This document shows, one piece after another, positions 9,439 through 31,056 of a stretch of DNA of 31,056 bases. The DNA comes from Escherichia coli (GTDB taxonomy: Bacteria > Pseudomonadota > Gammaproteobacteria > Enterobacterales > Enterobacteriaceae), in NCBI RefSeq assembly GCF_003334335.1, contig NZ_QOWQ01000047.1; one strand, written 5' to 3'. Numbering within the stretch: position 1 is the stretch's first letter; every line of letters starts with the position of its first letter. The position numbers and the translations under genes were made by a program. The notes under the pieces are model-generated. The model was not told the origin of the DNA, ran no database searches, and saw only the letters and a list, made by a program, of their open reading frames with translations.

Positions 9439-9500
9439 CCCGTCACAACCACATCACACCTGTTTTCACTTTTATCTTCTGTCTTCAGAGGTATCACACT

Positions 9501-11140: not shown

Positions 11141-11983
11141 ATGTCAGACATCACAATCTCCCGTCCGGAAGTGGTCACCGGGCATACGGACGTTATCTGC
11201 TCAATCAGTATCCGCCACATTCTGGCTGTACGAAAGAGTACACTGCTGCAAATCGACACACTTATCCGGCAACTGGCTGAAATATCAGCAATGACAGAAA
11301 GTATTGGCGGTAAAGCCGCCCCGGACTGGGCCATGAAACAGGATTTTCGCTGCGGCTGCTGGCTGATGGAGAAACCGGAAACCGCAATGAAAGCCATCAC
11401 ACGCAATCTCGATCGCGAAATCTGGCGTGACCTGATGCAACGTTCAGGGATGCTTTCCTTAATGGATGCACAGGCCCGTGATACATGGTACCGGTCACTG
11501 GAGCACGATAATTTTCCGGAAATCAGTGAAGCGAACATTCTGAGCACATTTGAACAACTACACCAGAATAAGGATGAGGTGTTTGAGCGAGGGGTGATCA
11601 ACGTCTTCAGGGGACTGAACTGGAATTACAAAACCAATTGCCCCTGCAAATTTGGCAGTAAAATTATCGTCAACAACCTAGTGAGGTGGGACCGATGGGG
11701 GTTTCATCTTATCACCGGGCAACAGACTGACCGACTCGTCGACCTGGAAAGAATGCTACATCTGTTCAGCGGCAAACCGATCCCCGACAACCGGGAAAAC
11801 ATCACTATTCGTCTGGATGGTCACATCCAGTCCGTTCAGGGTAAAGAGCGCAATGAAGACGAGATGTTCATCATTAAATACTTTAAGAAGGGATCTGCAC
11901 ACATCACTTTCAAAAGGCTGGAACTGATTGACAGAATTAACGATATAATAGCCAGGTACTTTCCTTCTGTGCTCTCAGCCTGA
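11141..11983 (+). CDS. DUF4942-like protein, last gene of the island before the attachment-site repeat
   Basis: 280-aa ORF; the family name is recalled from annotations of similar islands and is not verified. The antisense ORF 11116-11601 was rejected. Confidence 0.5.
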   Translation: MSDITISRPEVVTGHTDVICSISIRHILAVRKSTLLQIDTLIRQLAEISAMTESIGGKAAPDWAMKQDFRCGCWLMEKPETAMKAITRNLDREIWRDLMQRSGMLSLMDAQARDTWYRSLEHDNFPEISEANILSTFEQLHQNKDEVFERGVINVFRGLNWNYKTNCPCKFGSKIIVNNLVRWDRWGFHLITGQQTDRLVDLERMLHLFSGKPIPDNRENITIRLDGHIQSVQGKERNEDEMFIIKYFKKGSAHITFKRLELIDRINDIIARYFPSVLSA

Positions 11984-12093
11984 TCCCGAGTGTGATTCCC
12001 TTTCGATATCAAAAGGGACTGCGGGTATAATTGAGGGTATATTTTTAATCAAACCAAATAAATTATATTAATATCAATATGATAAAAGAAATT

Positions 12094-12115
12094 TTCGATT
12101 CCGAGTCCGGCACCA
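12094..12115 (+). other. pheU: 3'-terminal 22-nt fragment of tRNA-Phe (pheU) without the rest of the gene: island attachment-site repeat (attR-type junction)
   Basis: TTCGATTCCGAGTCCGGCACCA matches the 3' end of E. coli tRNA-Phe (...GGTTCGATTCCGAGTCCGGGCACCA) with one G missing. The upstream bases are AT-rich island DNA, not tRNA. Confidence 0.6.
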
Positions 12116-12125
12116 AATTCATATA

Positions 12126-12155
12126 AACGGACCTCCACGGAGGTCCGTTTTTCGT
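12126..12155 (+). terminator. Intrinsic terminator (native pheU terminator) directly after the tRNA fragment
   Basis: AAACGGACCTCCACGGAGGTCCGTTTTTCG: a GC-rich stem (CGGACCT / AGGTCCG) followed by a T-run. Confidence 0.6.
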
Positions 12156-12731
12156 TTCAGGACGCCACGATTTAAGCGTTCTGCCTCCAAATCAATTCTA
12201 CCGAACTCAACCAGATTCTCCCCACATCACCAGCAATTTGCGGGCATATCCCAATTCGGGAAAATTTGTTCCTGAGCTATAGCACTAACTGACGTGAAAT
12301 GTCGTGCGGCCCCGTGATGCTGTTGAACGTCAAATGACGTCATCAGGAGCGTAACGCATCCATAAAGCACAACACCGGTCTGAACGGCGACTGATGAGAT
12401 TTTCTGAATGAGAACAAAGAGAAATGTATCAGTTCGCTTGCTCATGCAAAGACTAACAATCCATTAAAATAGTAAGTGCTCCGGACAATTTTCCATGGAT
12501 TATTTTCTGAACATTTTTCTTTGGCAAAGATGATGAATTTTGATGGTAAGGAATATTACTTCTGGTTCTCAGTAAAATCCTTTCGTAATACTATGTAATC
12601 AAGAAGTTTATGGCTGGTAAAAATAACGTCTTGCATTCACCAATAATATGTAAATAAACCCATCTATAGATGGTAAAAATAGGTTGTGGCAATTATCATT
12701 GCATCATTCCCTTTTCGAATGAGTTTCTATT

Positions 12732-14270
12732 ATGCAACAACCTGTAGTTCGCGTTGGCGAATGGCTTGTTACTCCGTCCATAAACCAAATTAGCCGCAAT
12801 GGGCGTCAACTTACCCTTGAGCCGAGATTAATCGATCTTCTGGTTTTCTTTGCTCAACACAGTGGCGAAGTACTTAGCAGGGATGAACTTATCGATAATG
12901 TCTGGAAGAGAAGTATTGTCACCAATCACGTTGTGACGCAGAGTATCTCAGAACTACGTAAGTCATTAAAAGATAATGATGAAGATAGTCCTGTCTATAT
13001 CGCTACTGTACCAAAGCGCGGCTATAAATTAATGGTGCCGGTTATCTGGTACAGCGAAGAAGAGGGAGAGGAAATAATGCTATCTTCGCCTCCCCCTATA
13101 CCAGAGGCGGTTCCTGCCACAGATTCTCCCTCCCACAGTCTTAACATTCAAAACACCGCAACGCCACCTGAACAATCCCCAGTTAAAAGCAAACGATTCA
13201 CTACCTTTTGGGTATGGTTTTTTTTCCTGTTGTCGTTAGGTATCTGTGTAGCACTGGTAGCGTTTTCAAGTCTTGATACACGTCTTCCTATGAGCAAATC
13301 GCGTATTTTGCTCAATCCACGCGATATTGACATTAATATGGTAAATAAAAGTTGTAACAGCTGGAGTTCCCCGTATCAGCTCTCTTACGCGATAGGCGTG
13401 GGTGATTTGGTGGCGACATCACTTAACACCTTCTCCACCTTTATGGTGCATGACAAAATCAACTACAACATTGATGAACCGAGCAGTTCCGGTAAAACAT
13501 TATCTATTGCGTTTGTTAATCAGCGCCAATACCGTGCTCAACAATGCTTTATGTCGATAAAATTGGTAGACAATGCAGATGGTTCAACCATGCTGGATAA
13601 ACGTTATGTCATCACTAACGGTAATCAGCTGGCGATTCAAAATGATTTACTGGAGAGTTTATCAAAAGCGTTAAACCAACCGTGGCCACAACGAATGCAG
13701 GAGACGCTCCAGAAAATTTTGCCGCATCGTGGTGCGTTATTAACTAATTTTTATCAGGCACATGATTATTTACTGCATGGCGATGATAAATCATTGAACC
13801 GTGCCAGTGAATTATTAGGTGAGATTGTTCAATCATCCCCAGAATTTACCTACGCGAGAGCAGAAAAAGCATTAGTTGATATCGTGCGCCATTCTCAACA
13901 TCCTTTAGATGAAAAACAATTAGCAGCACTGAACACAGAAATAGATAACATTGTTACACTGCCGGAATTGAACAACCTGTCCATTATATATCAAATAAAA
14001 GCGGTCAGTGCTCTGGTAAAAGGTAAAACAGATGAGTCTTACCAGGCGATAAATACTGGCATTGATCTTGAAATGTCCTGGCTAAATTATGTGTTGCTTG
14101 GCAAGGTTTATGAAATGAAGGGGATGAACCGGGAAGCAGCTGATGCATATCTCACCGCCTTTAATTTACGCCCAGGGGCAAACACCCTTTACTGGATTGA
14201 AAATGGTATATTCCAGACTTCTGTTCCTTATGTTGTACCTTATCTCGACAAATTTCTTGCTTCAGAATAA
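12732..14270 (+). CDS. cadC: CadC, membrane-integrated ToxR-like transcriptional activator of the cad operon
   Basis: 512-aa translation recognised as CadC (MQQPVVRVGEWLVTPSINQISRNGRQLTLEPRLIDLL...), with the expected synteny upstream of cadBA. Confidence 0.93.
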   Translation: MQQPVVRVGEWLVTPSINQISRNGRQLTLEPRLIDLLVFFAQHSGEVLSRDELIDNVWKRSIVTNHVVTQSISELRKSLKDNDEDSPVYIATVPKRGYKLMVPVIWYSEEEGEEIMLSSPPPIPEAVPATDSPSHSLNIQNTATPPEQSPVKSKRFTTFWVWFFFLLSLGICVALVAFSSLDTRLPMSKSRILLNPRDIDINMVNKSCNSWSSPYQLSYAIGVGDLVATSLNTFSTFMVHDKINYNIDEPSSSGKTLSIAFVNQRQYRAQQCFMSIKLVDNADGSTMLDKRYVITNGNQLAIQNDLLESLSKALNQPWPQRMQETLQKILPHRGALLTNFYQAHDYLLHGDDKSLNRASELLGEIVQSSPEFTYARAEKALVDIVRHSQHPLDEKQLAALNTEIDNIVTLPELNNLSIIYQIKAVSALVKGKTDESYQAINTGIDLEMSWLNYVLLGKVYEMKGMNREAADAYLTAFNLRPGANTLYWIENGIFQTSVPYVVPYLDKFLASE

Positions 14271-14634
14271 GTAACTCCGGGTTGATTTATGCTCGGAAAT
14301 ATTTGTTGTTGAGTTTTTGTATGTTCCTGTTGGTATAATATGTTGCGGCAATTTATTTGCCGCATAATTTTTATTACATAAATTTAACCAGAGAATGTCA
14401 CGCAACCCATTGTAAACATTAAATGTTTATCTTTTCATGATATCAACTTGCGATCCTGATGTGTTAATAAAAAACCTCAAGTTCTCACTTACAGAAACTT
14501 TTGTGTTATTTCACCTAATCTTTAGGATTAATCCTTTTTTCGTGAGTAATCTTATCGCCAGTTTGGTCTGGTCAGGAAATAGTTATACATCATGACCCGG
14601 ACTCCAAATTCAAAAATGAAATTAGGAGAAGAGC
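14271..14634 (+). promoter_or_regulatory. cadC-cadB intergenic region containing the cadBA promoter (Pcad) and CadC binding region
   Basis: Position only: established knowledge places Pcad and the CadC sites upstream of cadB. Individual sites were not mapped. Confidence 0.45.
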
Positions 14635-15969
14635 ATGAGTTCTGCCAAGAAGATCGGGCTATTTGCCTGTACCGGTGTTGTTGCCGGTAATATGATGGGG
14701 AGCGGTATTGCATTATTACCTGCGAACCTAGCAAGTATCGGTGGTATTGCTATCTGGGGTTGGATTATCTCTATTATTGGTGCAATGTCGCTGGCGTATG
14801 TATATGCCCGACTGGCAACAAAAAACCCGCAACAAGGTGGCCCAATTGCTTATGCCGGAGAAATTTCCCCTGCATTTGGTTTTCAGACAGGTGTTCTTTA
14901 TTACCATGCTAACTGGATTGGTAACCTGGCGATTGGTATTACCGCTGTATCTTATCTTTCCACCTTCTTCCCAGTATTAAATGATCCTGTTCCGGCGGGT
15001 ATCGCCTGTATTGCTATCGTCTGGGTATTTACCTTTGTAAATATGCTCGGCGGTACTTGGGTAAGCCGTTTAACCACTATTGGTCTGGTGCTGGTTCTTA
15101 TTCCTGTGGTGATGACTGCTATTGTTGGCTGGCATTGGTTTGATGCGGCAACTTATGCAGCTAACTGGAATACTGCGGATACCACTGATGGTCATGCGAT
15201 CATTAAAAGTATTCTGCTCTGCCTGTGGGCCTTCGTGGGTGTTGAATCCGCAGCTGTAAGTACTGGTATGGTTAAAAACCCGAAACGTACCGTTCCGCTG
15301 GCAACCATGCTGGGTACTGGTTTAGCAGGTATTGTTTACATCGCTGCGACTCAGGTGCTTTCCGGTATGTATCCGTCTTCTGTAATGGCGGCTTCCGGTG
15401 CTCCGTTTGCAATCAGTGCTTCAACTATCCTCGGTAACTGGGCTGCGCCGCTGGTTTCTGCATTCACCGCCTTTGCGTGCCTGACTTCTCTGGGCTCCTG
15501 GATGATGTTGGTAGGCCAGGCAGGTGTACGTGCCGCTAACGACGGTAACTTCCCGAAAGTTTATGGTGAAGTCGACAGCAACGGTATTCCGAAAAAAGGT
15601 CTGCTGCTGGCTGCAGTGAAAATGACTGCCCTGATGATCCTTATCACTCTGATGAACTCTGCCGGTGGTAAAGCATCTGACCTGTTCGGTGAACTGACCG
15701 GTATCGCAGTACTGCTGACTATGCTGCCGTATTTCTACTCTTGCGTTGACCTGATTCGTTTTGAAGGCGTTAACATCCGCAACTTTGTCAGCCTGATCTG
15801 CTCTGTACTGGGTTGCGTGTTCTGCTTCATCGCGCTGATGGGCGCAAGCTCCTTCGAGCTGGCAGGTACCTTCATCGTCAGCCTGATTATCCTGATGTTC
15901 TACGCTCGCAAAATGCACGAGCGCCAGAGCCACTCAATGGATAACCACACCGCGTCTAACGCACATTAA
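14635..15969 (+). CDS. cadB: CadB, lysine/cadaverine antiporter
   Basis: 444-aa polytopic membrane protein (MSSAKKIGLFACTGVVAGNMMGSGIALLPANLAS...) between cadC and cadA. Confidence 0.93.
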   Translation: MSSAKKIGLFACTGVVAGNMMGSGIALLPANLASIGGIAIWGWIISIIGAMSLAYVYARLATKNPQQGGPIAYAGEISPAFGFQTGVLYYHANWIGNLAIGITAVSYLSTFFPVLNDPVPAGIACIAIVWVFTFVNMLGGTWVSRLTTIGLVLVLIPVVMTAIVGWHWFDAATYAANWNTADTTDGHAIIKSILLCLWAFVGVESAAVSTGMVKNPKRTVPLATMLGTGLAGIVYIAATQVLSGMYPSSVMAASGAPFAISASTILGNWAAPLVSAFTAFACLTSLGSWMMLVGQAGVRAANDGNFPKVYGEVDSNGIPKKGLLLAAVKMTALMILITLMNSAGGKASDLFGELTGIAVLLTMLPYFYSCVDLIRFEGVNIRNFVSLICSVLGCVFCFIALMGASSFELAGTFIVSLIILMFYARKMHERQSHSMDNHTASNAH

Positions 15970-16039
15970 TTAAAAGTATTTTCCGAGGCTCCTCCTTTCA
16001 TTTTGTCCCATGTGTTGGGAGGGGCCTTTTTTACCTGGA

Positions 16040-18196
16040 GATATGACTATGAACGTTATTGCAATATTGAATCACATGGGGGTTTATTTTAAAGAAGAAC
16101 CCATCCGTGAACTTCATCGCGCGCTTGAACGTCTGAACTTCCAGATTGTTTACCCGAACGACCGTGACGACTTATTAAAACTGATCGAAAACAATGCGCG
16201 TCTGTGCGGCGTTATTTTTGACTGGGATAAATATAATCTCGAGCTGTGCGAAGAAATTAGCAAAATGAACGAGAACCTGCCGTTGTACGCGTTCGCTAAT
16301 ACGTATTCCACTCTCGATGTAAGCCTGAATGACCTGCGTTTACAGATTAGCTTCTTTGAATATGCGCTGGGTGCTGCTGAAGATATTGCTAATAAGATCA
16401 AGCAGACCACTGACGAATATATCAACACTATTCTGCCTCCGCTGACTAAAGCACTGTTTAAATATGTTCGTGAAGGTAAATATACTTTCTGTACTCCTGG
16501 TCACATGGGCGGTACTGCATTCCAGAAAAGCCCGGTAGGTAGCCTGTTCTATGATTTCTTTGGTCCGAATACCATGAAATCTGATATTTCCATTTCAGTA
16601 TCTGAACTGGGTTCTCTGCTGGATCACAGTGGTCCACACAAAGAAGCAGAACAGTATATCGCTCGCGTCTTTAACGCAGACCGCAGCTACATGGTGACCA
16701 ACGGTACTTCCACTGCGAACAAAATTGTTGGTATGTACTCTGCTCCAGCAGGCAGCACCATTCTGATTGACCGTAACTGCCACAAATCGCTGACCCACCT
16801 GATGATGATGAGCGATGTTACGCCAATCTATTTCCGCCCGACCCGTAACGCTTACGGTATTCTTGGTGGTATCCCACAGAGTGAATTCCAGCACGCTACC
16901 ATTGCTAAGCGCGTGAAAGAAACACCAAACGCAACCTGGCCGGTACATGCTGTAATTACCAACTCTACCTATGATGGTCTGCTGTACAACACCGACTTCA
17001 TCAAGAAAACACTGGATGTGAAATCCATCCACTTTGACTCCGCGTGGGTGCCTTACACCAACTTCTCACCGATTTACGAAGGTAAATGCGGTATGAGCGG
17101 TGGCCGTGTAGAAGGGAAAGTGATTTACGAAACCCAGTCCACTCACAAACTGCTGGCGGCGTTCTCTCAGGCTTCCATGATCCACGTTAAAGGTGACGTA
17201 AACGAAGAAACCTTTAACGAAGCCTACATGATGCACACCACCACTTCTCCGCACTACGGTATCGTGGCGTCCACTGAAACCGCTGCGGCGATGATGAAAG
17301 GCAATGCAGGTAAGCGTCTGATCAACGGTTCTATTGAACGTGCGATCAAATTCCGTAAAGAGATCAAACGTCTGAGAACGGAATCTGATGGCTGGTTCTT
17401 TGATGTATGGCAGCCGGATCATATCGATACGACTGAATGCTGGCCGCTGCGTTCTGACAGCACCTGGCACGGCTTCAAAAACATCGATAACGAGCACATG
17501 TATCTTGACCCGATCAAAGTCACCCTGCTGACTCCGGGGATGGAAAAAGACGGCACCATGAGCGACTTTGGTATTCCGGCCAGCATCGTGGCGAAATACC
17601 TCGACGAACATGGCATCGTTGTTGAGAAAACCGGTCCGTATAACCTGCTGTTCCTGTTCAGCATCGGTATCGATAAGACCAAAGCACTGAGCCTGCTGCG
17701 TGCTCTGACTGACTTTAAACGTGCGTTCGACCTGAACCTGCGTGTGAAAAACATGCTGCCGTCTCTGTATCGTGAAGATCCTGAATTCTATGAAAACATG
17801 CGTATTCAGGAACTGGCTCAGAATATCCACAAACTGATTGTTCACCACAATCTGCCGGATCTGATGTATCGCGCATTTGAAGTGCTGCCGACGATGGTAA
17901 TGACTCCGTATGCTGCATTCCAGAAAGAGCTGCACGGTATGACCGAAGAAGTTTACCTCGACGAAATGGTAGGTCGTATTAACGCCAATATGATCCTTCC
18001 GTACCCGCCGGGAGTTCCTCTGGTAATGCCGGGTGAAATGATCACCGAAGAAAGCCGTCCGGTTCTGGAGTTCCTGCAGATGCTGTGTGAAATCGGCGCT
18101 CACTATCCGGGCTTTGAAACCGATATTCACGGTGCATACCGTCAGGCTGATGGCCGCTATACCGTTAAGGTATTGAAAGAAGAAAGCAAAAAATAA
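16040..18196 (+). CDS. cadA: CadA, inducible lysine decarboxylase
   Basis: Translation MNVIAILNHMGVYFKEEPIRELHRALERLNFQIVYPNDRDD... The track ORF begins at 16010, but the ATG at 16040 gives the expected ~715-aa CadA N-terminus. Confidence 0.93.
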   Translation, partial: DMTMNVIAILNHMGVYFKEEPIRELHRALERLNFQIVYPNDRDDLLKLIENNARLCGVIFDWDKYNLELCEEISKMNENLPLYAFANTYSTLDVSLNDLRLQISFFEYALGAAEDIANKIKQTTDEYINTILPPLTKALFKYVREGKYTFCTPGHMGGTAFQKSPVGSLFYDFFGPNTMKSDISISVSELGSLLDHSGPHKEAEQYIARVFNADRSYMVTNGTSTANKIVGMYSAPAGSTILIDRNCHKSLTHLMMMSDVTPIYFRPTRNAYGILGGIPQSEFQHATIAKRVKETPNATWPVHAVITNSTYDGLLYNTDFIKKTLDVKSIHFDSAWVPYTNFSPIYEGKCGMSGGRVEGKVIYETQSTHKLLAAFSQASMIHVKGDVNEETFNEAYMMHTTTSPHYGIVASTETAAAMMKGNAGKRLINGSIERAIKFRKEIKRLRTESDGWFFDVWQPDHIDTTECWPLRSDSTWHGFKNIDNEHMYLDPIKVTLLTPGMEKDGTMSDFGIPASIVAKYLDEHGIVVEKTGPYNLLFLFSIGIDKTKALSLLRALTDFKRAFDLNLRVKNMLPSLYREDPEFYENMRIQELAQNIHKLIVHHNLPDLMYRAFEVLPTMVMTPYAAFQKELHGMTEEVYLDEMVGRINANMILPYPPGVPLVMPGEMITEESRPVLEFLQMLCEIGAHYPGFETDIHGAYRQADGRYTVKVLKEESKK

Positions 18197-18209
18197 TTAG
18201 CTCGTACAA

Positions 18210-18237
18210 GGGAAGTGGCTTGCCACTTCCCTTTTTT
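18210..18237 (+). terminator. Intrinsic terminator after cadA
   Basis: GGGAAGTGG-cttg-CCACTTCCC hairpin (9-bp GC-rich stem) followed by TTTTTT. Confidence 0.65.
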
Positions 18238-18254
18238 GCTCATAAGGAGAACAC

Positions 18255-19712
18255 ATGAAAACACCCTCACAGCCGCGCGCGATATACTATATCGTGGCGA
18301 TCCAAATCTGGGAGTACTTCAGTTTTTACGGCATGCGTGCCTTACTCATTCTCTATCTCACCCATCAGCTTGGTTTTGATGATAACCATGCCATCAGCCT
18401 GTTCAGCGCATATGCTTCTCTGGTTTACGTTACCCCTATTCTCGGCGGCTGGCTTGCCGACCGCCTGCTCGGCAACCGCACTGCAGTGATTGCCGGCGCG
18501 CTGTTAATGACCCTTGGCCATGTGGTGCTGGGTATTGATACAAATTCAACCTTTAGCCTGTATCTGGCGCTGGCAATCATTATTTGTGGCTACGGTTTAT
18601 TCAAATCAAACATCAGCTGTTTGCTTGGCGAGCTCTACGACGAGAACGATCATCGACGTGATGGCGGTTTTTCGCTGCTGTATGCTGCGGGCAATATCGG
18701 TTCTATCGCAGCCCCAATCGCCTGCGGCCTGGCTGCTCAGTGGTATGGATGGCATGTTGGCTTTGCCCTTGCGGGTGGCGGCATGTTTATCGGTTTGTTG
18801 ATTTTCTTAAGCGGTCATCGTCATTTCCAGTCCACACGTAGTATGGATAAAAAAGCGCTCACTAGTGTCAAATTTGCCTTACCAGTATGGAGCTGGTTAG
18901 TGGTGATGCTCTGTTTAGCCCCAGTATTTTTTACTCTGCTGCTGGAGAACGACTGGTCCGGATATTTGCTGGCGATCGTTTGCCTCATTGCCGCACAAAT
19001 CATTGCCCGCATGATGATCAAATTCCCCGAACATCGCCGTGCTCTTTGGCAAATTGTATTGTTGATGTTTGTCGGGACATTGTTCTGGGTACTGGCACAA
19101 CAGGGCGGCAGTACCATCAGCTTGTTTATCGATCGCTTTGTGAATCGTCAGGCATTCAATATTGAAGTACCTACAGCACTATTCCAGTCGGTGAATGCAA
19201 TTGCGGTGATGCTCGCTGGGGTTGTACTGGCCTGGCTGGCGTCGCCAGAAAGCCGCGGCAACTCAACATTGCGCGTCTGGCTGAAGTTTGCCTTTGGCTT
19301 ACTGCTGATGGCTTGTGGCTTTATGTTGTTGGCATTTGATGCCCGACATGCAGCGGCTGACGGTCAAGCGTCAATGGGCGTGATGATATCCGGGCTGGCG
19401 CTAATGGGCTTTGCCGAACTCTTTATTGACCCGGTGGCGATTGCGCAAATCACGCGTCTGAAAATGTCTGGCGTATTAACCGGGATTTATATGCTGGCAA
19501 CAGGCGCGGTCGCCAACTGGCTGGCAGGCGTCGTGGCACAGCAGACGACAGAGTCGCAAATTAGCGGTATGGCAATTGCAGCTTACCAGCGATTCTTTTC
19601 TCAGATGGGAGAGTGGACGTTGGCTTGTGTCGCGATCATCGTCGTATTGGCCTTTGCTACCCGTTTTCTGTTTAGCACGCCGACGAATATGATACAGGAG
19701 AGCAACGATTAA
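18255..19712 (+). CDS. dtpC: DtpC (YjdL), proton-dependent di/tripeptide transporter (POT family)
   Basis: 485-aa membrane protein ([36 protein letters not shown]...) between cadA and lysU. Confidence 0.88.
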
Positions 19713-19948
19713 CTGTCGTAAAAACAATTGGTTATGAATAAATTAACTTTCAGTTTATAACACTAACAAATCGAGATTAATAAGTCATTTAAACCATTTT
19801 GATGGTTATTTATTAGTGATATCAACTTGAGGTAAGCGTTAGTTTCGATAAGATAAACTGAGTTACTAATAGTCGAGGCAGATAATACAGTGTACCGATC
19901 TGTCTCTTTATCTACGCTAAATTGAAAGCTGGATTTAGAGGAACCAAA

Positions 19949-21466
19949 ATGTCTGAACAAGAAACACGGGGAGCCAATGAGGCTATTGATTTTAACGATG
20001 AACTGAGAAATCGCCGCGAAAAACTGGCGGCACTACGTCAGCAAGGTGTGGCGTTTCCCAATGATTTTCGCCGCGACCATACCTCTGACCAGTTGCACGA
20101 AGAGTTTGATGCGAAGGATAACCAGGAACTGGAATCCTTAAACATTGAAGTCTCGGTTGCTGGCCGAATGATGACCCGTCGTATCATGGGGAAAGCCTCC
20201 TTTGTAACGTTGCAGGATGTCGGTGGCCGTATTCAACTGTACGTTGCAAGAGATAGCCTGCCAGAAGGTGTTTATAACGATCAGTTTAAAAAATGGGATC
20301 TGGGTGACATTATCGGTGCCCGCGGTACGCTGTTTAAGACGCAAACGGGTGAGCTTTCCATTCACTGTACTGAGCTGCGCCTGCTGACTAAAGCACTACG
20401 TCCTTTACCAGATAAATTCCATGGTCTGCAGGATCAGGAAGTCCGTTATCGTCAACGTTATCTGGACCTCATCGCTAACGATAAATCCCGTCAAACGTTT
20501 GTTGTCCGTTCAAAAATTCTGGCCGCTATCCGTCAATTCATGGTCGCGCGCGGCTTTATGGAAGTAGAAACCCCGATGATGCAGGTAATTCCAGGTGGGG
20601 CATCTGCTCGCCCGTTTATTACCCATCATAATGCTCTGGATTTAGATATGTATCTGCGTATCGCGCCGGAGCTGTATCTGAAACGTCTGGTTGTAGGCGG
20701 TTTTGAACGGGTATTCGAAATCAACCGTAACTTCCGTAATGAAGGTATTTCTGTTCGCCATAATCCTGAGTTCACAATGATGGAACTCTACATGGCGTAT
20801 GCGGATTACCACGATTTGATTGAACTGACAGAGTCACTGTTCCGCACCCTGGCACAAGAGGTTCTGGGTACCACTAAAGTCACTTATGGCGAGCATGTGT
20901 TTGATTTCGGCAAACCGTTTGAAAAACTCACCATGCGCGAAGCAATCAAAAAATATCGTCCAGAAACCGATATGGCCGACCTGGATAATTTTGATGCTGC
21001 TAAAGCATTAGCTGAATCTATCGGTATTACGGTAGAGAAAAGCTGGGGGTTGGGACGTATTGTCACAGAGATCTTTGATGAAGTGGCAGAAGCACATCTG
21101 ATTCAGCCAACCTTTATTACGGAATATCCGGCAGAAGTGTCCCCGCTGGCACGCCGTAATGATGTTAACCCGGAAATCACCGACCGTTTTGAATTCTTCA
21201 TCGGTGGTCGTGAAATCGGTAATGGTTTTAGCGAATTAAACGACGCAGAAGATCAGGCTGAACGTTTCCAGGAACAGGTTAATGCTAAAGCTGCAGGTGA
21301 CGACGAAGCCATGTTCTATGACGAAGATTACGTGACTGCGCTGGAATATGGTCTGCCGCCAACCGCTGGTCTGGGTATTGGTATCGACCGAATGATTATG
21401 CTGTTTACTAACAGCCATACTATTCGCGACGTTATTCTCTTCCCGGCGATGCGCCCACAGAAATAA
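19949..21466 (+). CDS. lysU: LysU, lysine--tRNA ligase (heat-inducible isoform)
   Basis: Class II lysyl-tRNA synthetase sequence starting [33 protein letters not shown]...; the track ORF starts 27 nt earlier at 19922. Assigned as lysU rather than lysS by synteny with cadA and dtpC. Confidence 0.9.
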
Positions 21467-21479
21467 ATTTCACTTTAAT

Positions 21480-21509
21480 GAACGAAGCAGTCAGGCGACT
21501 GCTTCGTTC
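21480..21509. terminator. Hairpin between convergent lysU and ghoT; possible bidirectional terminator
   Basis: 13-bp perfect stem GAACGAAGCAGTC / GACTGCTTCGTTC with a 4-nt loop. T-tracts on both sides are weak. Confidence 0.45.
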
Positions 21510-21584
21510 ATCGTTCCGCAAATCCAGTTTTGAGGAGAGACGCTTCGTTTCACGATAACCAGCGGGTCCACTCAACTACAGCTC

Positions 21585-21758
21585 CTAAAAGAGAGAAAAA
21601 AGTAATGCCACAGGCAGACTCATTGGCCAGGTTATTCCGACCAGGAATGCACTAAGTAAACGAATATGTGTTTTCTCATGTGAGATAAACCAGATAATGA
21701 CAAAGGATATGTTCACACCAATCACATAAAAAATTAATATTTTAGAGAATAGTGCCAT
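21585..21758 (-). CDS. ghoT: GhoT, small membrane toxin of the type V GhoT/GhoS toxin-antitoxin pair (57 aa; below the ORF-track length cutoff)
   Basis: Hand translation of the minus strand gives MALFSKILIFYVIGVNISFVIIWFISHEKTHIRLLSAFLVGITWPMSLPVALLFSLF-stop, 27 bp downstream of ghoS. Confidence 0.8.
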   Translation of the reverse strand: MALFSKILIFYVIGVNISFVIIWFISHEKTHIRLLSAFLVGITWPMSLPVALLFSLF

Positions 21759-21785
21759 TTTTTATGTTCTTCTTATCCTTCCTGG

Positions 21786-22082
21786 CTACTTGTAAAACTG
21801 ACGGAAATAGTCATCAACTGTCATAATGTTGAGGTCAAAATCAATATCCGGTAAGTCTAAGCATTTGAGCCTGATTAAATCTTCGATTTCACTTGCGGCT
21901 AACGATGTCGTTATTGCGAAGGAGTTTTCATTCAATTGTCGTGGTATCCCATATTCATCAGCCACGATAGAGGAGAAATTCATATCATACATCAATGATC
22001 TTAATCTTAAGAACACTGAGGAATAAGATGATGGATAATCAAAAGAAACAACATAAGTATTGAACTTGTTTTTACCTTCCAT
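21786..22082 (-). CDS. ghoS: GhoS, type V antitoxin (endoribonuclease)
   Basis: 98-aa ORF (MEGKNKFNTYVVSFDYPSSYSSVFLRLRSLMYDMNF...) in K-12 synteny next to lysU and yjdJ. Confidence 0.85.
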   Translation of the reverse strand: MEGKNKFNTYVVSFDYPSSYSSVFLRLRSLMYDMNFSSIVADEYGIPRQLNENSFAITTSLAASEIEDLIRLKCLDLPDIDFDLNIMTVDDYFRQFYK

Positions 22083-22308
22083 AATATGACTCCTATCAAT
22101 ATTAAACGCTCTGGGGACGCAAAACTTATTAACCCCGATTGATGATTCTCATATAGGAGATATTCTTTTTTTTGCTCAGTAAAGGGGATGACTTGGGACA
22201 AAAAAACGCGCTCTCTGCCCATTCTTTGTGCATCCCCCTACCCTTCAGATGCTCTCCTGCATCACATCGCGGAGAGAATGAAAAATATCGTGACTCTGTA
22301 CTCTCCCA

Positions 22309-22581
22309 TCAACTGCGAATATCATCATACTCCCGCGTTTTATCAAATTCATGTTTCGCAAATGGGCATAATGGGATAATTTTTCGTTTTTCCCGACGCA
22401 TTTTTTCCACGACTTTCGCAACCAGCTGTTTACCAATCCCTTGCCCTTTCAGGCTTTCATCGACATCGGTATGTTCGATAATCGCTAAATTCTCTCCGGT
22501 CGGCACAAAGACAATTTCAGCGATTTGCTTGCCTTGTTTGTCATTAATGTAAAATTTATTGTGGCCTTCGCGTATTTCCAT
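22309..22581 (-). CDS. yjdJ: YjdJ, GNAT-family N-acetyltransferase-like protein
   Basis: 90-aa ORF in the expected position; assigned by synteny and recall. Confidence 0.75.
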
Positions 22582-22592
22582 TTTACCCTCGC

Positions 22593-22823
22593 TTATTTAT
22601 GACGGTATTTCAGCGCGCCGCTCGGGCACGTATCAATCACTTTAACCACAGTGGCGACGTCGACTTCATCCGGCATGATCCACGGCTTTCGTTTGAGATT
22701 AAATAACTTGCCGTTGCCACGTACGCAATTGCCAGAATGCTGACATATCGCAGTGTTGAAATAGACATCGAGCTTTTCGCCGGTATAACAGCGATAACCC
22801 CCGTCCAGTAGCGCCTGATCCAT
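22593..22823 (-). CDS. yjdI: YjdI, small Cys-containing protein (DUF1271-like)
   Basis: 76-aa ORF ([41 protein letters not shown]...) 11 bp upstream of yjdJ on the same strand. Confidence 0.75.
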
Positions 22824-23003
22824 GACCTTCCCTCTCTCATCAGTATGATTATCGCTATAAGCATAGCCCCGGAATCTTCATACAGCACTGGCAGTTTCCG
22901 TTGCCAGAGTCTCTTCCCCTATATAGCCAATCATTCTTACTCCCTTTGAATTACCCGCCTCATCAGAGATAATGCTTAAGAAATTTGTCACACAAGGAAG
23001 CTG

Positions 23004-24635
23004 ATGAGACATTCATTGCCCTACCGCATGTTACGCAAACGTCCGATGAAATTGAGTACCACAGTGATCTTAATGGTCAGTGCGGTACTGTTCTCGGTGC
23101 TATTGGTGGTGCATCTGATTTACTTCTCGCAAATCAGTGATATGACGCGAGATGGGCTAGCCAACAAGGCACTGGCAGTGGCGCGTACCCTCGCCGACTC
23201 GCCGGAAATCCGTCAGGGCTTGCAGAAAAAACCGCAGGAGAGTGGCATCCAGGCCATCGCGGAAGCCGTACGCAAACGCAACGATCTGCTGTTTATTGTC
23301 GTTACCGATATGCAAAGTCTTCGCTACTCGCATCCTGAAGCCCAGCGTATTGGTCAGCCATTTAAAGGTGATGACATCCTTAAAGCGCTGAATGGCGAAG
23401 AAAATGTCGCTATCAATCGCGGTTTTCTGGCGCAGGCTTTACGCGTATTTACCCCCATCTACGATGAAAATCATAAACAAATTGGCGTGGTGGCGATCGG
23501 CCTTGAGTTAAGCCGTGTGACCCAACAGATCAATGACAGTCGCTGGAGCATTATCTGGTCGGTATTATTTGGCATGCTGGTCGGACTGATTGGCACCTGC
23601 ATTCTGGTTAAGGTACTGAAAAAAATCCTTTTCGGCCTGGAACCCTACGAAATCTCCACGCTGTTTGAGCAACGCCAGGCCATGTTGCAGTCTATCAAAG
23701 AAGGCGTCGTTGCCGTGGACGATCGCGGCGAGGTCACGCTGATCAACGATGCCGCACAAGAATTGCTGAATTACCGTAAGTCGCAGGACGATGAGAAACT
23801 GTCGACGCTAAGCCACTCATGGTCACAGGTGGTAGATGTCTCGGAAGTGTTACGCGACGGTACCCCGCGCCGCGACGAAGAGATTACGATTAAAGACCGG
23901 CTATTACTGATCAACACCGTTCCGGTGCGCAGTAATGGCGTTATCATCGGTGCCATTTCAACCTTCAGGGACAAAACTGAAGTACGTAAACTGATGCAGC
24001 GACTCGACGGTCTGGTCAACTATGCTGACGCACTTCGTGAACGATCCCACGAATTTATGAATAAATTGCATGTGATTCTCGGATTATTGCATCTGAAGAG
24101 TTATAAGCAGTTGGAAGATTACATTCTCAAAACAGCCAATAACTATCAGGAAGAGATTGGCTCTCTGCTGGGTAAGATCAAATCTCCGGTTATCGCTGGT
24201 TTTTTAATCAGCAAGATTAACCGCGCGACCGATTTAGGCCATACGCTGATTTTAAACAGTGAAAGCCAGCTGCCAGACAGCGGCAGTGAGGACCAGGTCG
24301 CGACGCTGATTACCACGTTGGGAAATCTGATAGAAAACGCGCTGGAGGCATTAGGGCCGGAACCCGGAGGCGAAATTAGCGTAACATTGCACTACCGTCA
24401 CGGCTGGCTGCACTGTGAAGTTAATGATGATGGACCGGGGATCGCACCCGATAAAATCGATCACATTTTTGACAAAGGTGTCTCGACAAAAGGAAGCGAG
24501 CGAGGCGTCGGTTTAGCACTTGTCAAACAACAGGTAGAAAATCTCGGCGGCAGCATCGCCGTGGAATCGGAACCCGGGATTTTCACACAATTTTTTGTCC
24601 AGATACCCTGGGACGGGGAGAGGTCGAACAGATGA
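23004..24635 (+). CDS. dcuS: DcuS, C4-dicarboxylate sensor histidine kinase
   Basis: 543-aa ORF with an N-terminal transmembrane segment and a C-terminal HATPase region (...DDGPGIAPDKIDHIFDKGVSTKGSERGVGLALVKQ...); overlaps dcuR by 4 bp. Confidence 0.9.
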   Translation: MRHSLPYRMLRKRPMKLSTTVILMVSAVLFSVLLVVHLIYFSQISDMTRDGLANKALAVARTLADSPEIRQGLQKKPQESGIQAIAEAVRKRNDLLFIVVTDMQSLRYSHPEAQRIGQPFKGDDILKALNGEENVAINRGFLAQALRVFTPIYDENHKQIGVVAIGLELSRVTQQINDSRWSIIWSVLFGMLVGLIGTCILVKVLKKILFGLEPYEISTLFEQRQAMLQSIKEGVVAVDDRGEVTLINDAAQELLNYRKSQDDEKLSTLSHSWSQVVDVSEVLRDGTPRRDEEITIKDRLLLINTVPVRSNGVIIGAISTFRDKTEVRKLMQRLDGLVNYADALRERSHEFMNKLHVILGLLHLKSYKQLEDYILKTANNYQEEIGSLLGKIKSPVIAGFLISKINRATDLGHTLILNSESQLPDSGSEDQVATLITTLGNLIENALEALGPEPGGEISVTLHYRHGWLHCEVNDDGPGIAPDKIDHIFDKGVSTKGSERGVGLALVKQQVENLGGSIAVESEPGIFTQFFVQIPWDGERSNR

Positions 24636-25351
24636 TCAATGTATTAATTATCGATGACGACGCAATGGTCGCGGAGCTGAATCGCCGATACGTAGCACAA
24701 ATCCTAGGCTTTCAATGCTGTGGAACAGCCTCGACGCTGGAGAAAGCCAAAGAGATTATCTTCAATAGCGATACGCCTATCGACCTGATATTGCTCGATA
24801 TCTATATGCAAAAAGAGAACGGGCTCGATTTACTGCCTGTCCTGCATAACGCGCGTTGCAAAAGTGATGTGATTGTCATCTCCTCCGCAGCCGATGCGGC
24901 AACCATTAAAGATTCGCTGCATTACGGTGTCGTGGATTACCTGATCAAACCCTTCCAGGCTTCCCGCTTTGAAGAGGCGCTCACCGGCTGGCGGCAAAAG
25001 AAAATGGCGCTGGAAAAACATCAGTATTATGACCAGGCCGAGCTTGATCAGCTAATCCACGGCAGCAGCTCCAACGAACAGGATCCTCGTCGCTTGCCAA
25101 AAGGCTTAACGCCGCAGACGTTACGCACACTGTGCCAGTGGATTGACGCGCATCAGGACTATGAATTTTCAACCGACGAGCTAGCCAACGAGGTTAACAT
25201 TTCGCGTGTTTCCTGCCGTAAATACCTCATCTGGCTGGTCAACTGCCACATCTTGTTCACCAGTATCCATTATGGCGTCACGGGGCGTCCAGTTTACCGT
25301 TACCGTATTCAGGCAGAACACTACTCACTACTGAAACAATATTGCCAATAA
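24632..25351 (+). CDS. dcuR: DcuR, response regulator partner of DcuS
   Basis: 239-aa ORF with a receiver domain (MINVLIIDDDAMVAELNRRYV...LLDIYMQ...) translationally coupled to dcuS through an ATGA overlap. Confidence 0.9.
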   Translation: MINVLIIDDDAMVAELNRRYVAQILGFQCCGTASTLEKAKEIIFNSDTPIDLILLDIYMQKENGLDLLPVLHNARCKSDVIVISSAADAATIKDSLHYGVVDYLIKPFQASRFEEALTGWRQKKMALEKHQYYDQAELDQLIHGSSSNEQDPRRLPKGLTPQTLRTLCQWIDAHQDYEFSTDELANEVNISRVSCRKYLIWLVNCHILFTSIHYGVTGRPVYRYRIQAEHYSLLKQYCQ

Positions 25352-25921
25352 CGGATCGCTGGTTATCTGTAAGTAATAATTATTACCGTAATGCAAAATA
25401 CCCCTGGCACAAGTTACATCCTTCATCAGTAAAACTTGTGCCAGATCAAATATAATTATCCCTCCATCATCGCTAAAAATTAATATCTCTTCAGGTGAAC
25501 GGTGTTTTTAATTTCAAAACGCTAACAAAAGTTAATTAACTATTATGTCACCCGCATTATGTGTATTTTTACCCACAAATGGGTAGATCAGATTAATCTA
25601 TAAACCTAATGACATCTGCCCTGAGAACAAAAAATAGACCGATAAATATCAATAAGATAACAGCAAACAAAACATTAACATCTGCGCAGTACAAACTATA
25701 AACCCATCGCCAGAGAGTCTTTCTCTCTGAAAAAGCCGCTTATCACAGTGCATAAATTTGCCGCTGCTTTAATCAGCCAATATTCACTGTGAGGTATTTG
25801 CTAAAGCCGGTAACGACCAAACGGATATTTAGTCAGGCTCTGAAAACAGTTCATACAAAACAGAACGTGACTGTGATCTATTCAGCAAAAATTTAAATAG
25901 GATTATCGCGAGGGTTCACAC
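25352..25921 (+). promoter_or_regulatory. Long AT-rich dcuB upstream region (expected DcuR/FNR/CRP-regulated promoter)
   Basis: 570-bp AT-rich intergenic stretch. Regulation is from established knowledge of dcuB; individual sites were not confidently located. Confidence 0.4.
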
Positions 25922-27262
25922 ATGTTATTTACTATCCAACTTATCATAATACTGATATGTCTGTTTTATGGTGCCAGAAAGGGTGGTATCGCGCTGGGTT
26001 TATTAGGCGGTATCGGTCTGGTCATTCTGGTCTTCGTCTTCCACCTTCAGCCAGGTAAACCACCAGTTGATGTCATGCTGGTTATCATTGCGGTGGTGGC
26101 GGCATCGGCGACCTTGCAAGCTTCGGGCGGTCTTGATGTCATGCTGCAAATTGCCGAGAAGCTGCTGCGCCGCAACCCGAAATATGTCTCAATTGTCGCG
26201 CCGTTTGTGACCTGTACACTGACCATTCTTTGCGGTACGGGTCATGTGGTTTACACCATTCTGCCGATCATCTACGACGTCGCCATTAAGAACAACATCC
26301 GTCCGGAACGTCCGATGGCGGCAAGTTCTATCGGTGCACAGATGGGGATTATCGCCAGTCCGGTGTCGGTTGCGGTCGTGTCTCTGGTTGCGATGCTGGG
26401 TAATGTCACCTTTGATGGTCGCCATCTTGAGTTCCTCGATCTGCTGGCAATCACCATTCCATCGACGTTAATCGGTATCCTGGCGATCGGTATCTTCAGC
26501 TGGTTCCGCGGTAAAGATCTGGATAAAGACGAAGAGTTCCAGAAATTCATCTCCGTACCGGAAAACCGTGAGTATGTTTACGGTGATACCGCGACGCTGC
26601 TGGATAAAAAACTGCCGAAAAGCAACTGGCTGGCAATGTGGATTTTCCTCGGGGCAATCGCTGTAGTCGCCCTTCTTGGTGCTGATTCGGACCTGCGTCC
26701 ATCCTTCGGCGGCAAACCGCTGTCGATGGTACTGGTTATTCAGATGTTTATGCTGCTGACCGGGGCGCTGATTATTATCCTGACCAAAACCAATCCCGCG
26801 TCTATCTCAAAAAACGAAGTCTTCCGTTCCGGTATGATCGCCATCGTGGCGGTGTACGGTATCGCATGGATGGCAGAAACCATGTTCGGTGCGCATATGT
26901 CTGAAATTCAGGGCGTACTGGGTGAAATGGTGAAAGAGTATCCGTGGGCCTATGCCATTGTTCTGCTGCTGGTTTCCAAGTTTGTAAACTCTCAGGCTGC
27001 GGCGCTGGCGGCGATTGTTCCGGTCGCGCTGGCGATCGGCGTTGATCCGGCATACATCGTGGCTTCAGCACCGGCTTGCTACGGTTATTACATCCTGCCG
27101 ACTTATCCGAGCGATCTGGCAGCGATTCAGTTTGACCGTTCCGGCACCACCCACATCGGTCGCTTCGTCATCAACCACAGCTTTATTCTGCCGGGGTTGA
27201 TTGGTGTGAGCGTATCGTGCGTCTTCGGCTGGATCTTCGCCGCGATGTACGGGTTCTTATAA
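25922..27262 (+). CDS. dcuB: DcuB, anaerobic C4-dicarboxylate transporter
   Basis: 446-aa polytopic membrane protein between dcuR and fumB. Confidence 0.9.
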
Positions 27263-27271
27263 ATGCACTTT

Positions 27272-27306
27272 GCGTGCCGCCCGTGACTACGCGGCACGCC
27301 ATTTTC
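27272..27306 (+). terminator. Hairpin after dcuB
   Basis: GCGTGCCGC ... GCGGCACGC 9-bp GC-rich inverted repeat with a 10-nt loop, followed by CATTTTCG. Confidence 0.45.
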
Positions 27307-27339
27307 GAATAACAAATACAGAGTTACAGGCTGGAAGCT

Positions 27340-28986
27340 ATGTCAAACAAACCCTTTATCTACCAGGCACCTTTCCCGATGGGGAAAGACAATACCGAAT
27401 ACTATCTACTCACTTCCGATTACGTTAGCGTTGCCGACTTCGACGGCGAAACCATCCTGAAAGTGGAACCAGAAGCCCTGACCCTGCTGGCGCAGCAAGC
27501 CTTTCACGACGCTTCTTTTATGCTCCGCCCGGCACACCAGAAACAGGTTGCGGCTATTCTTCACGATCCAGAAGCCAGCGAAAACGACAAGTACGTGGCG
27601 CTGCAATTCTTAAGAAACTCCGAAATCGCCGCCAAAGGCGTGCTGCCGACCTGCCAGGATACCGGCACCGCGATCATCGTCGGTAAAAAAGGCCAGCGCG
27701 TGTGGACCGGCGGCGGTGATGAAGAAACGCTGTCGAAAGGCGTCTATAACACCTATATCGAAGATAACCTGCGCTATTCACAGAATGCGGCGCTGGACAT
27801 GTACAAAGAAGTCAACACCGGCACTAACCTGCCTGCGCAAATCGACCTGTACGCGGTAGATGGCGATGAGTACAAATTCCTTTGCGTTGCGAAAGGCGGC
27901 GGCTCTGCCAACAAAACGTATCTCTACCAGGAAACCAAAGCCCTGCTGACTCCCGGCAAACTGAAAAACTTCCTCGTCGAGAAAATGCGTACCCTCGGTA
28001 CTGCAGCCTGCCCGCCGTACCATATCGCGTTTGTGATTGGCGGTACGTCTGCGGAAACCAACCTGAAAACCGTCAAGTTAGCAAGCGCTCACTATTACGA
28101 TGAACTGCCGACGGAAGGGAACGAACATGGTCAGGCGTTCCGCGATGTCCAGCTGGAACAGGAACTGCTGGAAGAGGCCCAGAAACTCGGTCTTGGCGCG
28201 CAGTTTGGCGGTAAATACTTCGCGCACGACATTCGCGTTATCCGTCTGCCACGTCACGGCGCATCCTGCCCGGTCGGCATGGGCGTCTCCTGCTCCGCTG
28301 ACCGTAACATTAAAGCGAAAATCAACCGCGAAGGTATCTGGATCGAAAAACTGGAACACAACCCAGGCCAGTACATTCCACAAGAACTGCGCCAGGCCGG
28401 TGAAGGCGAAGCGGTGAAAGTTGACCTTAACCGCCCGATGAAAGAGATCCTCGCCCAGCTTTCGCAATACCCGGTATCCACTCGTTTGTCGCTCACCGGC
28501 ACCATTATCGTGGGCCGAGATATTGCACACGCCAAGCTGAAAGAGCTGATTGACGCCGGTAAAGAACTTCCGCAGTACATCAAAGATCACCCGATCTACT
28601 ACGCGGGTCCGGCGAAAACCCCTGCCGGTTATCCATCAGGTTCACTTGGCCCAACCACCGCAGGCCGTATGGACTCCTACGTGGATCTGCTGCAATCCCA
28701 CGGCGGCAGCATGATCATGCTGGCGAAAGGTAACCGCAGTCAGCAGGTTACCGACGCGTGTCATAAACACGGCGGCTTCTACCTCGGTAGCATCGGCGGT
28801 CCGGCGGCGGTACTGGCGCAGCAGAGCATCAAGCATCTGGAGTGCGTCGCTTATCCGGAGCTGGGTATGGAAGCTATCTGGAAAATCGAAGTAGAAGATT
28901 TCCCGGCGTTTATCCTGGTCGATGACAAAGGTAACGACTTCTTCCAGCAAATCGTCAACAAACAGTGCGCGAACTGCACTAAGTAA
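27340..28986 (+). CDS. fumB: FumB, class I (Fe-S) fumarate hydratase, anaerobic isoform
   Basis: 548-aa ORF ([37 protein letters not shown]...); called fumB rather than fumA by synteny with dcuB. Confidence 0.92.
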
Positions 28987-28993
28987 CCTCTTC

Positions 28994-29047
28994 GGCCCAG
29001 CGCCTGGCAGCATGCTGCCAGGTGATCCCCCTGGGCCACCTCTTTTG
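28994..29047 (+). terminator. Nested hairpins after fumB
   Basis: CCTGGCAGC-at-GCTGCCAGG (29003-29022) nested within GGCCCAG ... CTGGGCC, then CTCTTTTGCG. Confidence 0.45.
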
Positions 29048-29108
29048 CGATTGTAATTTCACGCTTGCTGGTGAATAGTCAGTATTTTCCCTGATTTGCG
29101 AACTCACC

Positions 29109-29738
29109 ATGACCCGCACACTCAAGCCGTTAATTCTTAACACCAGCGCACTGACGCTAACGTTAATCCTGATTTATACCGGCATTTCGGCCCATGACAA
29201 ACTCACCTGGCTGATGGAAGTGACACCGGTGATTATTGTCGTGCAGCTACTGCTTGCCACCGCCAGACGTTATCCGTTAACGCCGCTGCTCTATACGCTC
29301 ATTTTCCTTCACGCCATCATCCTGATGGTCGGCGGACAATACACCTACGCGAAAGTCCCCGTTGGTTTTGAGGTGCAGGAATGGCTGGGGTTGAGTCGTA
29401 ATCCGTATGACAAGCTGGGGCACTTTTTCCAGGGGCTGGTGCCTGCACTGGTGGCACGAGAAATTCTCGTTCGCGGGATGTACGTGCGCGGACGTAAAAT
29501 GGTGGCGTTCCTGGTCTGCTGCGTGGCGCTGGCGATAAGCGCGATGTATGAATTAATCGAGTGGTGGGCAGCGCTGGCAATGGGTCAGGGAGCGGATGAT
29601 TTTCTCGGCACCCAGGGCGACCAGTGGGACACGCAATCCGATATGTTCTGCGCGCTGCTTGGCGCATTAACGACGGTGATATTCCTCGCTCGCTTTCATT
29701 GCCGCCAGCTACGGCGCTTTGGCTTGATAACCGGATAA
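29109..29738 (+). CDS. yjdF: YjdF, inner-membrane protein of unknown function
   Basis: 209-aa hydrophobic ORF between fumB and melB. Confidence 0.82.
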   Translation: MTRTLKPLILNTSALTLTLILIYTGISAHDKLTWLMEVTPVIIVVQLLLATARRYPLTPLLYTLIFLHAIILMVGGQYTYAKVPVGFEVQEWLGLSRNPYDKLGHFFQGLVPALVAREILVRGMYVRGRKMVAFLVCCVALAISAMYELIEWWAALAMGQGADDFLGTQGDQWDTQSDMFCALLGALTTVIFLARFHCRQLRRFGLITG

Positions 29739-29757
29739 CAACTTGCGCTTTGTTGAT

Positions 29758-29793
29758 GCCGGATGCGGCGTGAATTCCTTATCCGGTCTACAA
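29758..29793. repeat. REP (repetitive extragenic palindromic) element
   Basis: GCCGGATGCGGCGTGAATTCCTTATCCGGTCTAC matches the canonical E. coli REP consensus; a second hairpin GGCCTGAT ... ATCAGGCC follows at 29827-29853. Confidence 0.55.
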
Positions 29794-29876
29794 AATTTGC
29801 AAATCCAAAGCATTACATTAAGACGTGGCCTGATAAACATATCGCATCAGGCCATTTTCGTTAGCTATTGTCCACG

Positions 29877-30968
29877 TCAGGCTTTCACATCACTCACTGC
29901 ACCGACCGGAATATCAGCATGAACAGGCTCGGGCGGTACTTTGCGATATTTATCCAGCAGATGGATCTGGATCCTGCGCAGCGTGTCACCATTGAGGCGA
30001 TAGAAACGGAAGTAGAGAATCAGCGTTACCATGAAAAACAGAGTTGGTAGAGCAATCATAATAAACTGCATACCTAATAGGGCTTGCGTAGACTGTTCAA
30101 CATTCGGTACATAGCCAATCATCCCTAACACAACCGCAATGAAAAAAGCCGCAAAGGCTGAACCGCCCTTCACCACCATAGTCTGCACGGAGTAAGCGAT
30201 ACTTTCACAGCGTACGTGCAGTTTATATTCACCGTAATCAACGATATCTGCCACCATGATGACCTGTAATACCCAGAAAAGCGCCGTTCCCACATTCAGC
30301 AAAATACCCGCAATCACAATGAGGACGACGTTGTGATAGCTCATTAATGCCATTAACAGGAGAACACCACAGCTTAACACCGGAAGAATAGATGCTCCGG
30401 CCCATAAAATGCGTCGGGATAATGATTTAACTAAGCGTGGGAAGAATACTAACGTCACCAGGTTAGCAGCTCCCGCATACGACAGATAATAGGGGAACAA
30501 ATCCGCATCACCGATAACATATGAGAAATAATAGATAGCAAAGCCGGTAATAATGTTGCTGGCTACATTATAAGCAAGAGCCATACCCAAGAGGCATGAA
30601 AGCTGATCGTTTTTATAAATTAGCGCAACGATGGCTTTAAGTGTCAGATGGCTTCCTTCAGCAGACGGTTGATTGTCTGACGAAAAGACTTCATGCACAT
30701 TGCGCAGAGTGATGATGGTTGAAACAATAAAAAAGGCGATCAGTACCAGAGTGAACATCTGAAAGCCAAATCCCCGATCGCCACCGCCGACATAATTAAC
30801 AAATGGTAGCGTCACACCTGCCGTAACAAAGCCTGCCAGACTGGCAAAAAAACGCGGATAAGGAACCAGTTGTTCGCGCTCACGTTTATCGAGCGTGATG
30901 GTTGGAACCAGCGACCAGAAGGGAATATCCATAATGGTGTAAGTCATGCCCCAGAGGATGTAGGTCAC
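29877..30968 (-). CDS. melB: MelB, melibiose:cation symporter, 3' ~360 codons only; the 5' part is not recoverable in this window
   Basis: The track translation matches MelB from ...[18 protein letters not shown]... to the C-terminus ...VSDVKA. Upstream of about 30970 the frame hits a stop and does not encode the expected MelB N-terminus. Confidence 0.8.
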
Positions 30969-31056
30969 GCAAACAAAGAGAGCCTGTACATAGATTTGTG
31001 TAATTGCCTGATTTTGATATGTTCAATCCAGCATCAAATGAAGGTTAATTTATGGA

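Follow-up and report, generated by a model that had tools for sequence, protein, structure and literature searches.

An intact chromosomal type V toxin-antitoxin operon, ghoS-ghoT, in the allele of Escherichia coli K-12, almost certainly lies on the minus strand of the stretch of E. coli DNA analysed here (31,056 nucleotides of contig NZ_QOWQ01000047.1, assembly GCF_003334335.1; the whole of this stretch is referred to as the window), as judged from comparison of its DNA and predicted proteins with those of K-12. The identity, integrity and arrangement of both genes, residue R28 of GhoS, residue F38 of GhoT and an asymmetry of three against no GCU sites in the ghoS and ghoT genes were obtained directly, and the RNase activity of GhoS, the damage to the membrane and the cascade from MqsR are reported in the literature on the identical K-12 proteins. 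The sequence-only reading of this DNA, which our analysis followed up, had listed ghoST as a known system, and the identical K-12 DNA bears this out: the system is already known and there is nothing new at the locus. The coordinates of the genes and of the other features discussed below are collected in Table 1.

Table 1. Positions of the ghoST locus, its putative signals and the neighbouring island features in the window
Feature	Position	Strand	Description
ghoS (yjdK)	21786-22082	minus	98-aa ORF, ATG start (ORF listing, minimum 20 aa)
ghoS-ghoT spacer	21759-21785	minus	27 nt, CCAGGAAGGATAAGAAGAACATAAAAA
ghoT (yjdO)	21585-21758	minus	57-aa ORF, ATG start (ORF listing, minimum 20 aa)
yjdJ-ghoS intergenic region	22083-22308	minus	226 nt; presumed home of the ghoST promoter
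11-nt perfect inverted repeat	21724-21767	minus	mRNA ACAUAAAAAAU ... AUUUUUUAUGU, 22-nt loop
Perfect inverted repeat	21478-21511		Arms 21478-21492 and 21497-21511, 15 nt, 100% complementary, 4-nt loop
Second toxin-antitoxin pair (island)	9802-10170, 10260-10637	plus	~97% DNA identity to the type IV YeeU-family (CbeA-like) antitoxin and CbtA-family toxin of strain TUM9754
DUF5983 ORF	10634-11056		Island, after the CbtA-family toxin ORF; TUM9754 alignment
DUF4942 ORF	11141-11983		Island, after the CbtA-family toxin ORF; TUM9754 alignment
501-aa ORF	5709-7214	plus	N-terminal YfjP/YeeP-like GTPase domain; weak Era/Der-type hits, residues 39-175

Identity and arrangement of the two genes

The DNA of the ghoST interval is 100% identical to that of E. 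coli K-12 MG1655, and across positions 18400-25300 of the window 2 of 6901 bases differ from K-12 (22772 and 24705), both outside ghoST. The K-12 coding sequences, at positions 3186-3359 (ghoT) and 3387-3683 (ghoS) of the K-12 locus, are carried by an offset of 18,399 exactly onto the intervals given in Table 1, and the K-12 RefSeq annotation at the matching coordinates names ghoS and ghoT, whose locus tags we take to be b4128 (yjdK/ghoS) and b4559 (yjdO/ghoT). The GhoT/GhoS type V system of E. coli K-12 was reportedly the subject of Wang et al. in 2012 (Nat Chem Biol 8:855). Our locus shares with it the DNA of ghoS, ghoT, their spacer and the flanking sequence, together with the gene order, the neighbours, residues R28 of GhoS and F38 of GhoT and the asymmetry in GCU sites, and no difference was found inside the locus.

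Protein comparisons gave the same assignment. The 98-residue GhoS matches chain A of PDB entry 2LLZ ('Uncharacterized protein yjdK') at 98/98 residues (E 7.8e-62) and the Pfam family PF11080 (E 7e-41), and GhoT, whose translation is MALFSKILIFYVIGVNISFVIIWFISHEKTHIRLLSAFLVGITWPMSLPVALLFSLF, matches PF10753 (Toxin_GhoT_OrtT; E 9.8e-26) over model positions 1-55 of 55, whereas the NCBIfam HMMs gave no match for either protein. Given the 2 differences from K-12 in 6901 bases (none of them in ghoST), the exact mapping of the coding sequences and the Pfam E-values, the match is not a chance one. The sequence-only reading had recognized the 57-aa minus-strand ORF as GhoT and the ORF upstream of it as GhoS; both assignments are upheld, the first by identity of the DNA with the ghoT gene annotated in K-12 and by PF10753 over its full length, and the second by the PDB and PF11080 matches.

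The ghoS gene lies 5' of ghoT on the same strand, and the distance of 27 bp that the earlier reading had put between them is the one we measured from the stop of ghoS to the ATG of ghoT. Each gene has its terminal stop alone, with no internal stop or frameshift in ghoS or in ghoT, and the 57 codons of ghoT, for which a realignment had been proposed, are likewise free of both on comparison with K-12. The two genes are presumably transcribed together, with the antitoxin gene first. It had also been claimed that ghoT escapes an ORF track with a limit of 60 aa, and this was seen here as well: at the default cut-off of the ORF lister (60 aa) ghoS is shown and the 57-aa ghoT is omitted, and ghoT appeared on lowering the minimum to 20 aa.

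An alternative view of the 57-aa ORF would make it an orphan toxin of the GhoT/OrtT family, i.e. an OrtT (YdcX)-like paralogue that lies beside ghoS and outside its control, and PF10753 does take in both GhoT and OrtT. OrtT (Islam et al. 2015, PMC4344625) is, like GhoT, a PF10753 member of 57 aa, a membrane-damaging peptide with two transmembrane segments and F38, and it is 63% identical to GhoT; unlike the GhoT described here, it has no adjacent antitoxin, is not neutralized by GhoS and has two GCU sites in its mRNA (PMC4344625). Genes of this family can also be found without GhoS: a search of the plasmid collection gave GhoT/OrtT-family ORFs on plasmids and megaplasmids of Pantoea (78 records), Salmonella, Klebsiella and Proteus, none of which has a GhoS match, and the GhoS matches in that collection are in E. 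coli only. Such ORFs fit a toxin family that, as already published, extends beyond the pair under GhoS control. However, our 57-aa ORF has the DNA of the annotated K-12 ghoT at 100% identity and occupies the place of that gene in K-12, directly after ghoS and its spacer, and it holds no GCU site, as against the two of ortT mRNA. On the grounds of exact identity to K-12 ghoT, the adjacent ghoS and the lack of GCU sites, identity as an OrtT paralogue was ruled out, and the probability that we leave to it is vanishingly small.

Toxin, antitoxin and the basis of the MqsR model

Both proteins were examined for the residues and segments on which the published work on GhoS and GhoT turns. GhoS carries R28, L25 and M31, of which R28 has been described as the most important residue for endoribonuclease activity and as part of a Cas2-like catalytic set (PMC4010927). 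GhoS is a structural homologue of Cas2 with common catalytic residues and acts on ghoT mRNA and on a small set of other transcripts (PMC4010927); unlike the setting of Cas2, no CRISPR array or cas genes are found near ghoS. GhoT is strongly hydrophobic, with a GRAVY value of 1.5, and its hydropathy profile displays two hydrophobic segments, at approximately residues 4-26 and 32-57, around the short polar stretch HEKTH. This profile fits the two transmembrane domains that have been described for GhoT and OrtT (PMC4344625). In addition, GhoT has F38, the residue at which the substitution F38R abolishes its toxicity (PMC4344625).

The sites of the MqsR toxin, 5'-GCU, are distributed unequally over the operon, with three in ghoS (nt 121, 213 and 221), none in ghoT and none in the spacer. 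The sequence therefore reproduces the basis of the MqsR model, namely GCU in ghoS and its absence from ghoT and the spacer, and it agrees with the published description of a ghoT mRNA without 5'-GCU (PMC4344625, PMC4905990). For a gene of 174 nt with 35% GC the lack of GCU is only mildly unusual, as approximately 9% of mononucleotide shuffles of ghoT likewise have none.

In the mechanism proposed for this operon, GhoT, as a 57-residue peptide with two hydrophobic segments, would insert into the inner membrane, and its production would lead to membrane damage, lower ATP and slower growth, giving the 'ghost' cells. GhoS, a small Cas2-like endoribonuclease, would cleave ghoT mRNA such that little toxin is translated, and would not bind the toxin protein. 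Under stress, the type II toxin MqsR, which cuts at 5'-GCU, would destroy the ghoS part of the message and spare the GCU-free ghoT, so that toxin would be made. These steps follow published work in which GhoS cleaves ghoT mRNA and does not act by protein binding, is not labile and shows no autoregulation, and in which MqsR preferentially degrades ghoS mRNA, leaving ghoT mRNA enriched (PMC4344625, PMC4010927, PMC4905990, PMC5086665). For the K-12 allele, phenotypes of ghoT deletion and toxicity on expression have been described (PMC4344625). The physiological cascade from MqsR to GhoT is nevertheless contested and is weakened by the work of Fraikin et al. (2019; PMC6918082), according to which mqsRA is not regulated by stress and has no part in stress resistance or the associated phenotypes.

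Putative transcription and translation signals, and possible RNA structure at the ghoT start

A Shine-Dalgarno sequence, AGGAG, is found 7 nt before the ATG of ghoS. The strong Shine-Dalgarno-like motif of ghoT, AGGAAGGA, lies far from its start, 17 nt upstream of the ATG, and nearer to the start there is only the weak AAGAAG; intrinsic translation initiation at ghoT may well be weak, if these motifs are a guide. A promoter consensus scan, which is a weak test for promoters, gave no site within the 226-nt yjdJ-ghoS region, and its sole minus-strand hit was at 22346-22318, in the 3' end of yjdJ. The number of hits in the promoter and terminator consensus scan was not above that in shuffles.

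Downstream of the operon, the longer of the two perfect repeats in Table 1 forms a hairpin in the gap that separates ghoT (stop at 21585) from the convergent lysine-tRNA ligase gene (stop at 21466). The 131-nt region around it folds to -42.7 kcal/mol (z -3.39), and none of 200 shuffles was as stable. The terminator scan did not call this hairpin, or indeed any terminator at all; it was missed because there is no T-run after the stem on either strand. We infer that it is likely to be a terminator shared by ghoT and the lysine-tRNA ligase gene and acting in both directions.

A second, shorter repeat spans the start codon of ghoT. On the mRNA strand, its arms are at 21767-21757, covering the end of the spacer plus the first two bases of the ghoT AUG, and at 21734-21724, within ghoT codons 9-12. 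An inverted repeat of at least 11 nt within 60 nt was found in 1 of 200 dinucleotide shuffles of positions 21440-22320 (881 nt). The stem is almost all A-U, and the isolated hairpin has a predicted energy of -7.1 kcal/mol. It is absent from the minimum-energy fold, which has -15.7 kcal/mol as against -13.7 kcal/mol when the stem is enforced, and the 101-nt segment with the repeat folds no better than shuffles (z -0.31). In that minimum-energy fold the Shine-Dalgarno-like GAAGGAUA (21781-21774) pairs instead with UAUCCUUU inside ghoT (21709-21702). The E. coli copies, all at least 98% identical, and the GhoS relatives in the plasmid collection, all from E. coli, provide no divergence that is informative for conservation or covariation of the repeat.

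The repeat may be a weak hairpin that occludes the start codon, or it may simply result from the A6 and T6 runs. That either the repeat or the GAAGGAUA/UAUCCUUU pairing is a functional RNA element, which would hold off ghoT translation or present an A/U-rich site to GhoS, we consider unlikely; if true, RNA structure would contribute a further layer of control in a type V system. Such an element would then be comparable to the toxin mRNAs of type I toxin-antitoxin systems, which are folded and translationally inert. Type I systems (hok/sok, tisB/istR, ldr, ibs) use an antisense RNA as antitoxin. They resemble ghoST in that the toxin is small, hydrophobic and membrane-bound and its synthesis is regulated through the mRNA, whereas the antitoxin of ghoST is a protein, an RNase encoded upstream in the same operon. 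Rfam, at gathering thresholds, gave no match in the whole window; promoter-like hits on the plus strand, i.e. antisense to the operon, are present at 21712-21741 and 21798-21827, and antisense hits are not commoner than in shuffles.

Prevalence, genomic neighbourhood and the adjoining island

The sequence-only reading had placed ghoST in the core of the genome, and in this too it agrees with what was found. By megablast with positions 21400-22300 as query, the locus was present in 5,343 of 5,426 complete E. coli genomes, in 5,263 of which the match covers at least 80% of the query; the copies spanning the locus are all at least 98% identical, and matches of 100% were obtained in many strains, including K-12 MG1655, C600, C and ER1709. 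The RefSeq names under the match are 'type V toxin-antitoxin system endoribonuclease antitoxin GhoS', 'type V toxin-antitoxin system toxin GhoT' and lysine-tRNA ligase. In the window itself, ghoST lies within a block (12094-30979) that is 99.95-99.97% identical to K-12, approximately 9.5 kb from an island that occupies positions 1-12093, and its neighbours are those of K-12, in the order cadC, cadB, cadA, dtpC, the lysine-tRNA ligase gene (convergent with ghoT), ghoT, ghoS, yjdJ, yjdI, dcuS, dcuR, dcuB, fumB, yjdF and melB.

These data also bear on whether ghoST might be a decayed or non-functional remnant, with intact but silent genes and no physiological toxin-antitoxin role in this strain. 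In its favour are the lack of a sigma-70-like promoter in the consensus scan of the 226 nt upstream of ghoS, the lack of a canonical terminator call and the distance of the strong Shine-Dalgarno-like motif from the ghoT ATG, together with the published dispute over the physiological roles of chromosomal toxin-antitoxin systems, the MqsRA cascade included (PMC6918082). However, a simple consensus scan tests weakly for promoters, and the identical K-12 allele has both deletion phenotypes and toxicity when ghoT is expressed (PMC4344625). In addition, thousands of E. coli genomes keep ghoST at no less than 98% identity and have both genes annotated as intact, and this conservation points to selection or to a very recent common ancestor rather than to decay. 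A silent remnant is therefore highly improbable, and an intact ghoS-ghoT operon remains the reading that we adopt.

Within the core block, the substitutions relative to K-12 are at 14406, 22772 (yjdI coordinates), 24705 (dcuR coordinates) and 27810 (fumB coordinates), and one extra G is present at 29033, in the fumB-yjdF intergenic region. Unlike K-12, this strain has an island associated with pheU, 9.5 kb to the left of ghoST, and the end of an IS1414 element inside melB 9 kb to its right. Positions 1-12093 are the distal end of this genomic island, which is absent from K-12. Its edge is marked by a 22-nt remnant of the 3' end of tRNA-Phe (pheU) at 12094-12115, TTCGATTCCGAGTCCGGCACCA, with one G fewer than the intact K-12 gene, and a degenerate integrase fragment follows at approximately 12314-12473, as in K-12. 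ARAGORN found no intact tRNA in the whole window, and the intact pheU is thus presumably at the far end of the island.

Alignment to strain TUM9754 indicated that the island genes include those for a type IV YeeU-family antitoxin, a CbtA-family toxin, DUF4942 and DUF932 proteins, antirestriction and JAB-domain proteins, a GTPase and an inovirus Gp2-family protein. NCBIfam gave no match for the YeeU/CbtA-like pair or for the DUF5983 and DUF4942 ORFs, and was uninformative for most of the island ORFs. The TUM9754 counterpart of the 501-aa ORF with the GTPase domain has only 294 aa, and the window is without approximately 1.07 kb of TUM9754 DNA, with a break in the alignment at 6553-6571; the 501-aa ORF may be a fusion generated by deletion or a different allele. 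At the other end of the window, collinearity with K-12 stops at 30979/30980, inside melB, and the last 77 bases (30980-31056) match sequence that in many E. coli genomes carries the annotation IS1414 (an IS256-like element). The melB and IS1414 pieces are found close together in eight genomes, including that of ETEC H10407, and in this strain an insertion appears to have disrupted melB.

The ghoST locus, the founding member of the type V toxin-antitoxin systems and the best studied of them, occurs here unchanged in a near-K-12 backbone and is in itself of small biological interest. For annotation, a threshold of 60 aa hides ghoT and other small membrane toxins, and annotation tracks should accordingly add a short-ORF or family-based pass. 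With ghoST in its core part and a type IV CbtA/CbeA-like pair in the island, the window illustrates that core and accessory DNA differ in their toxin-antitoxin content.
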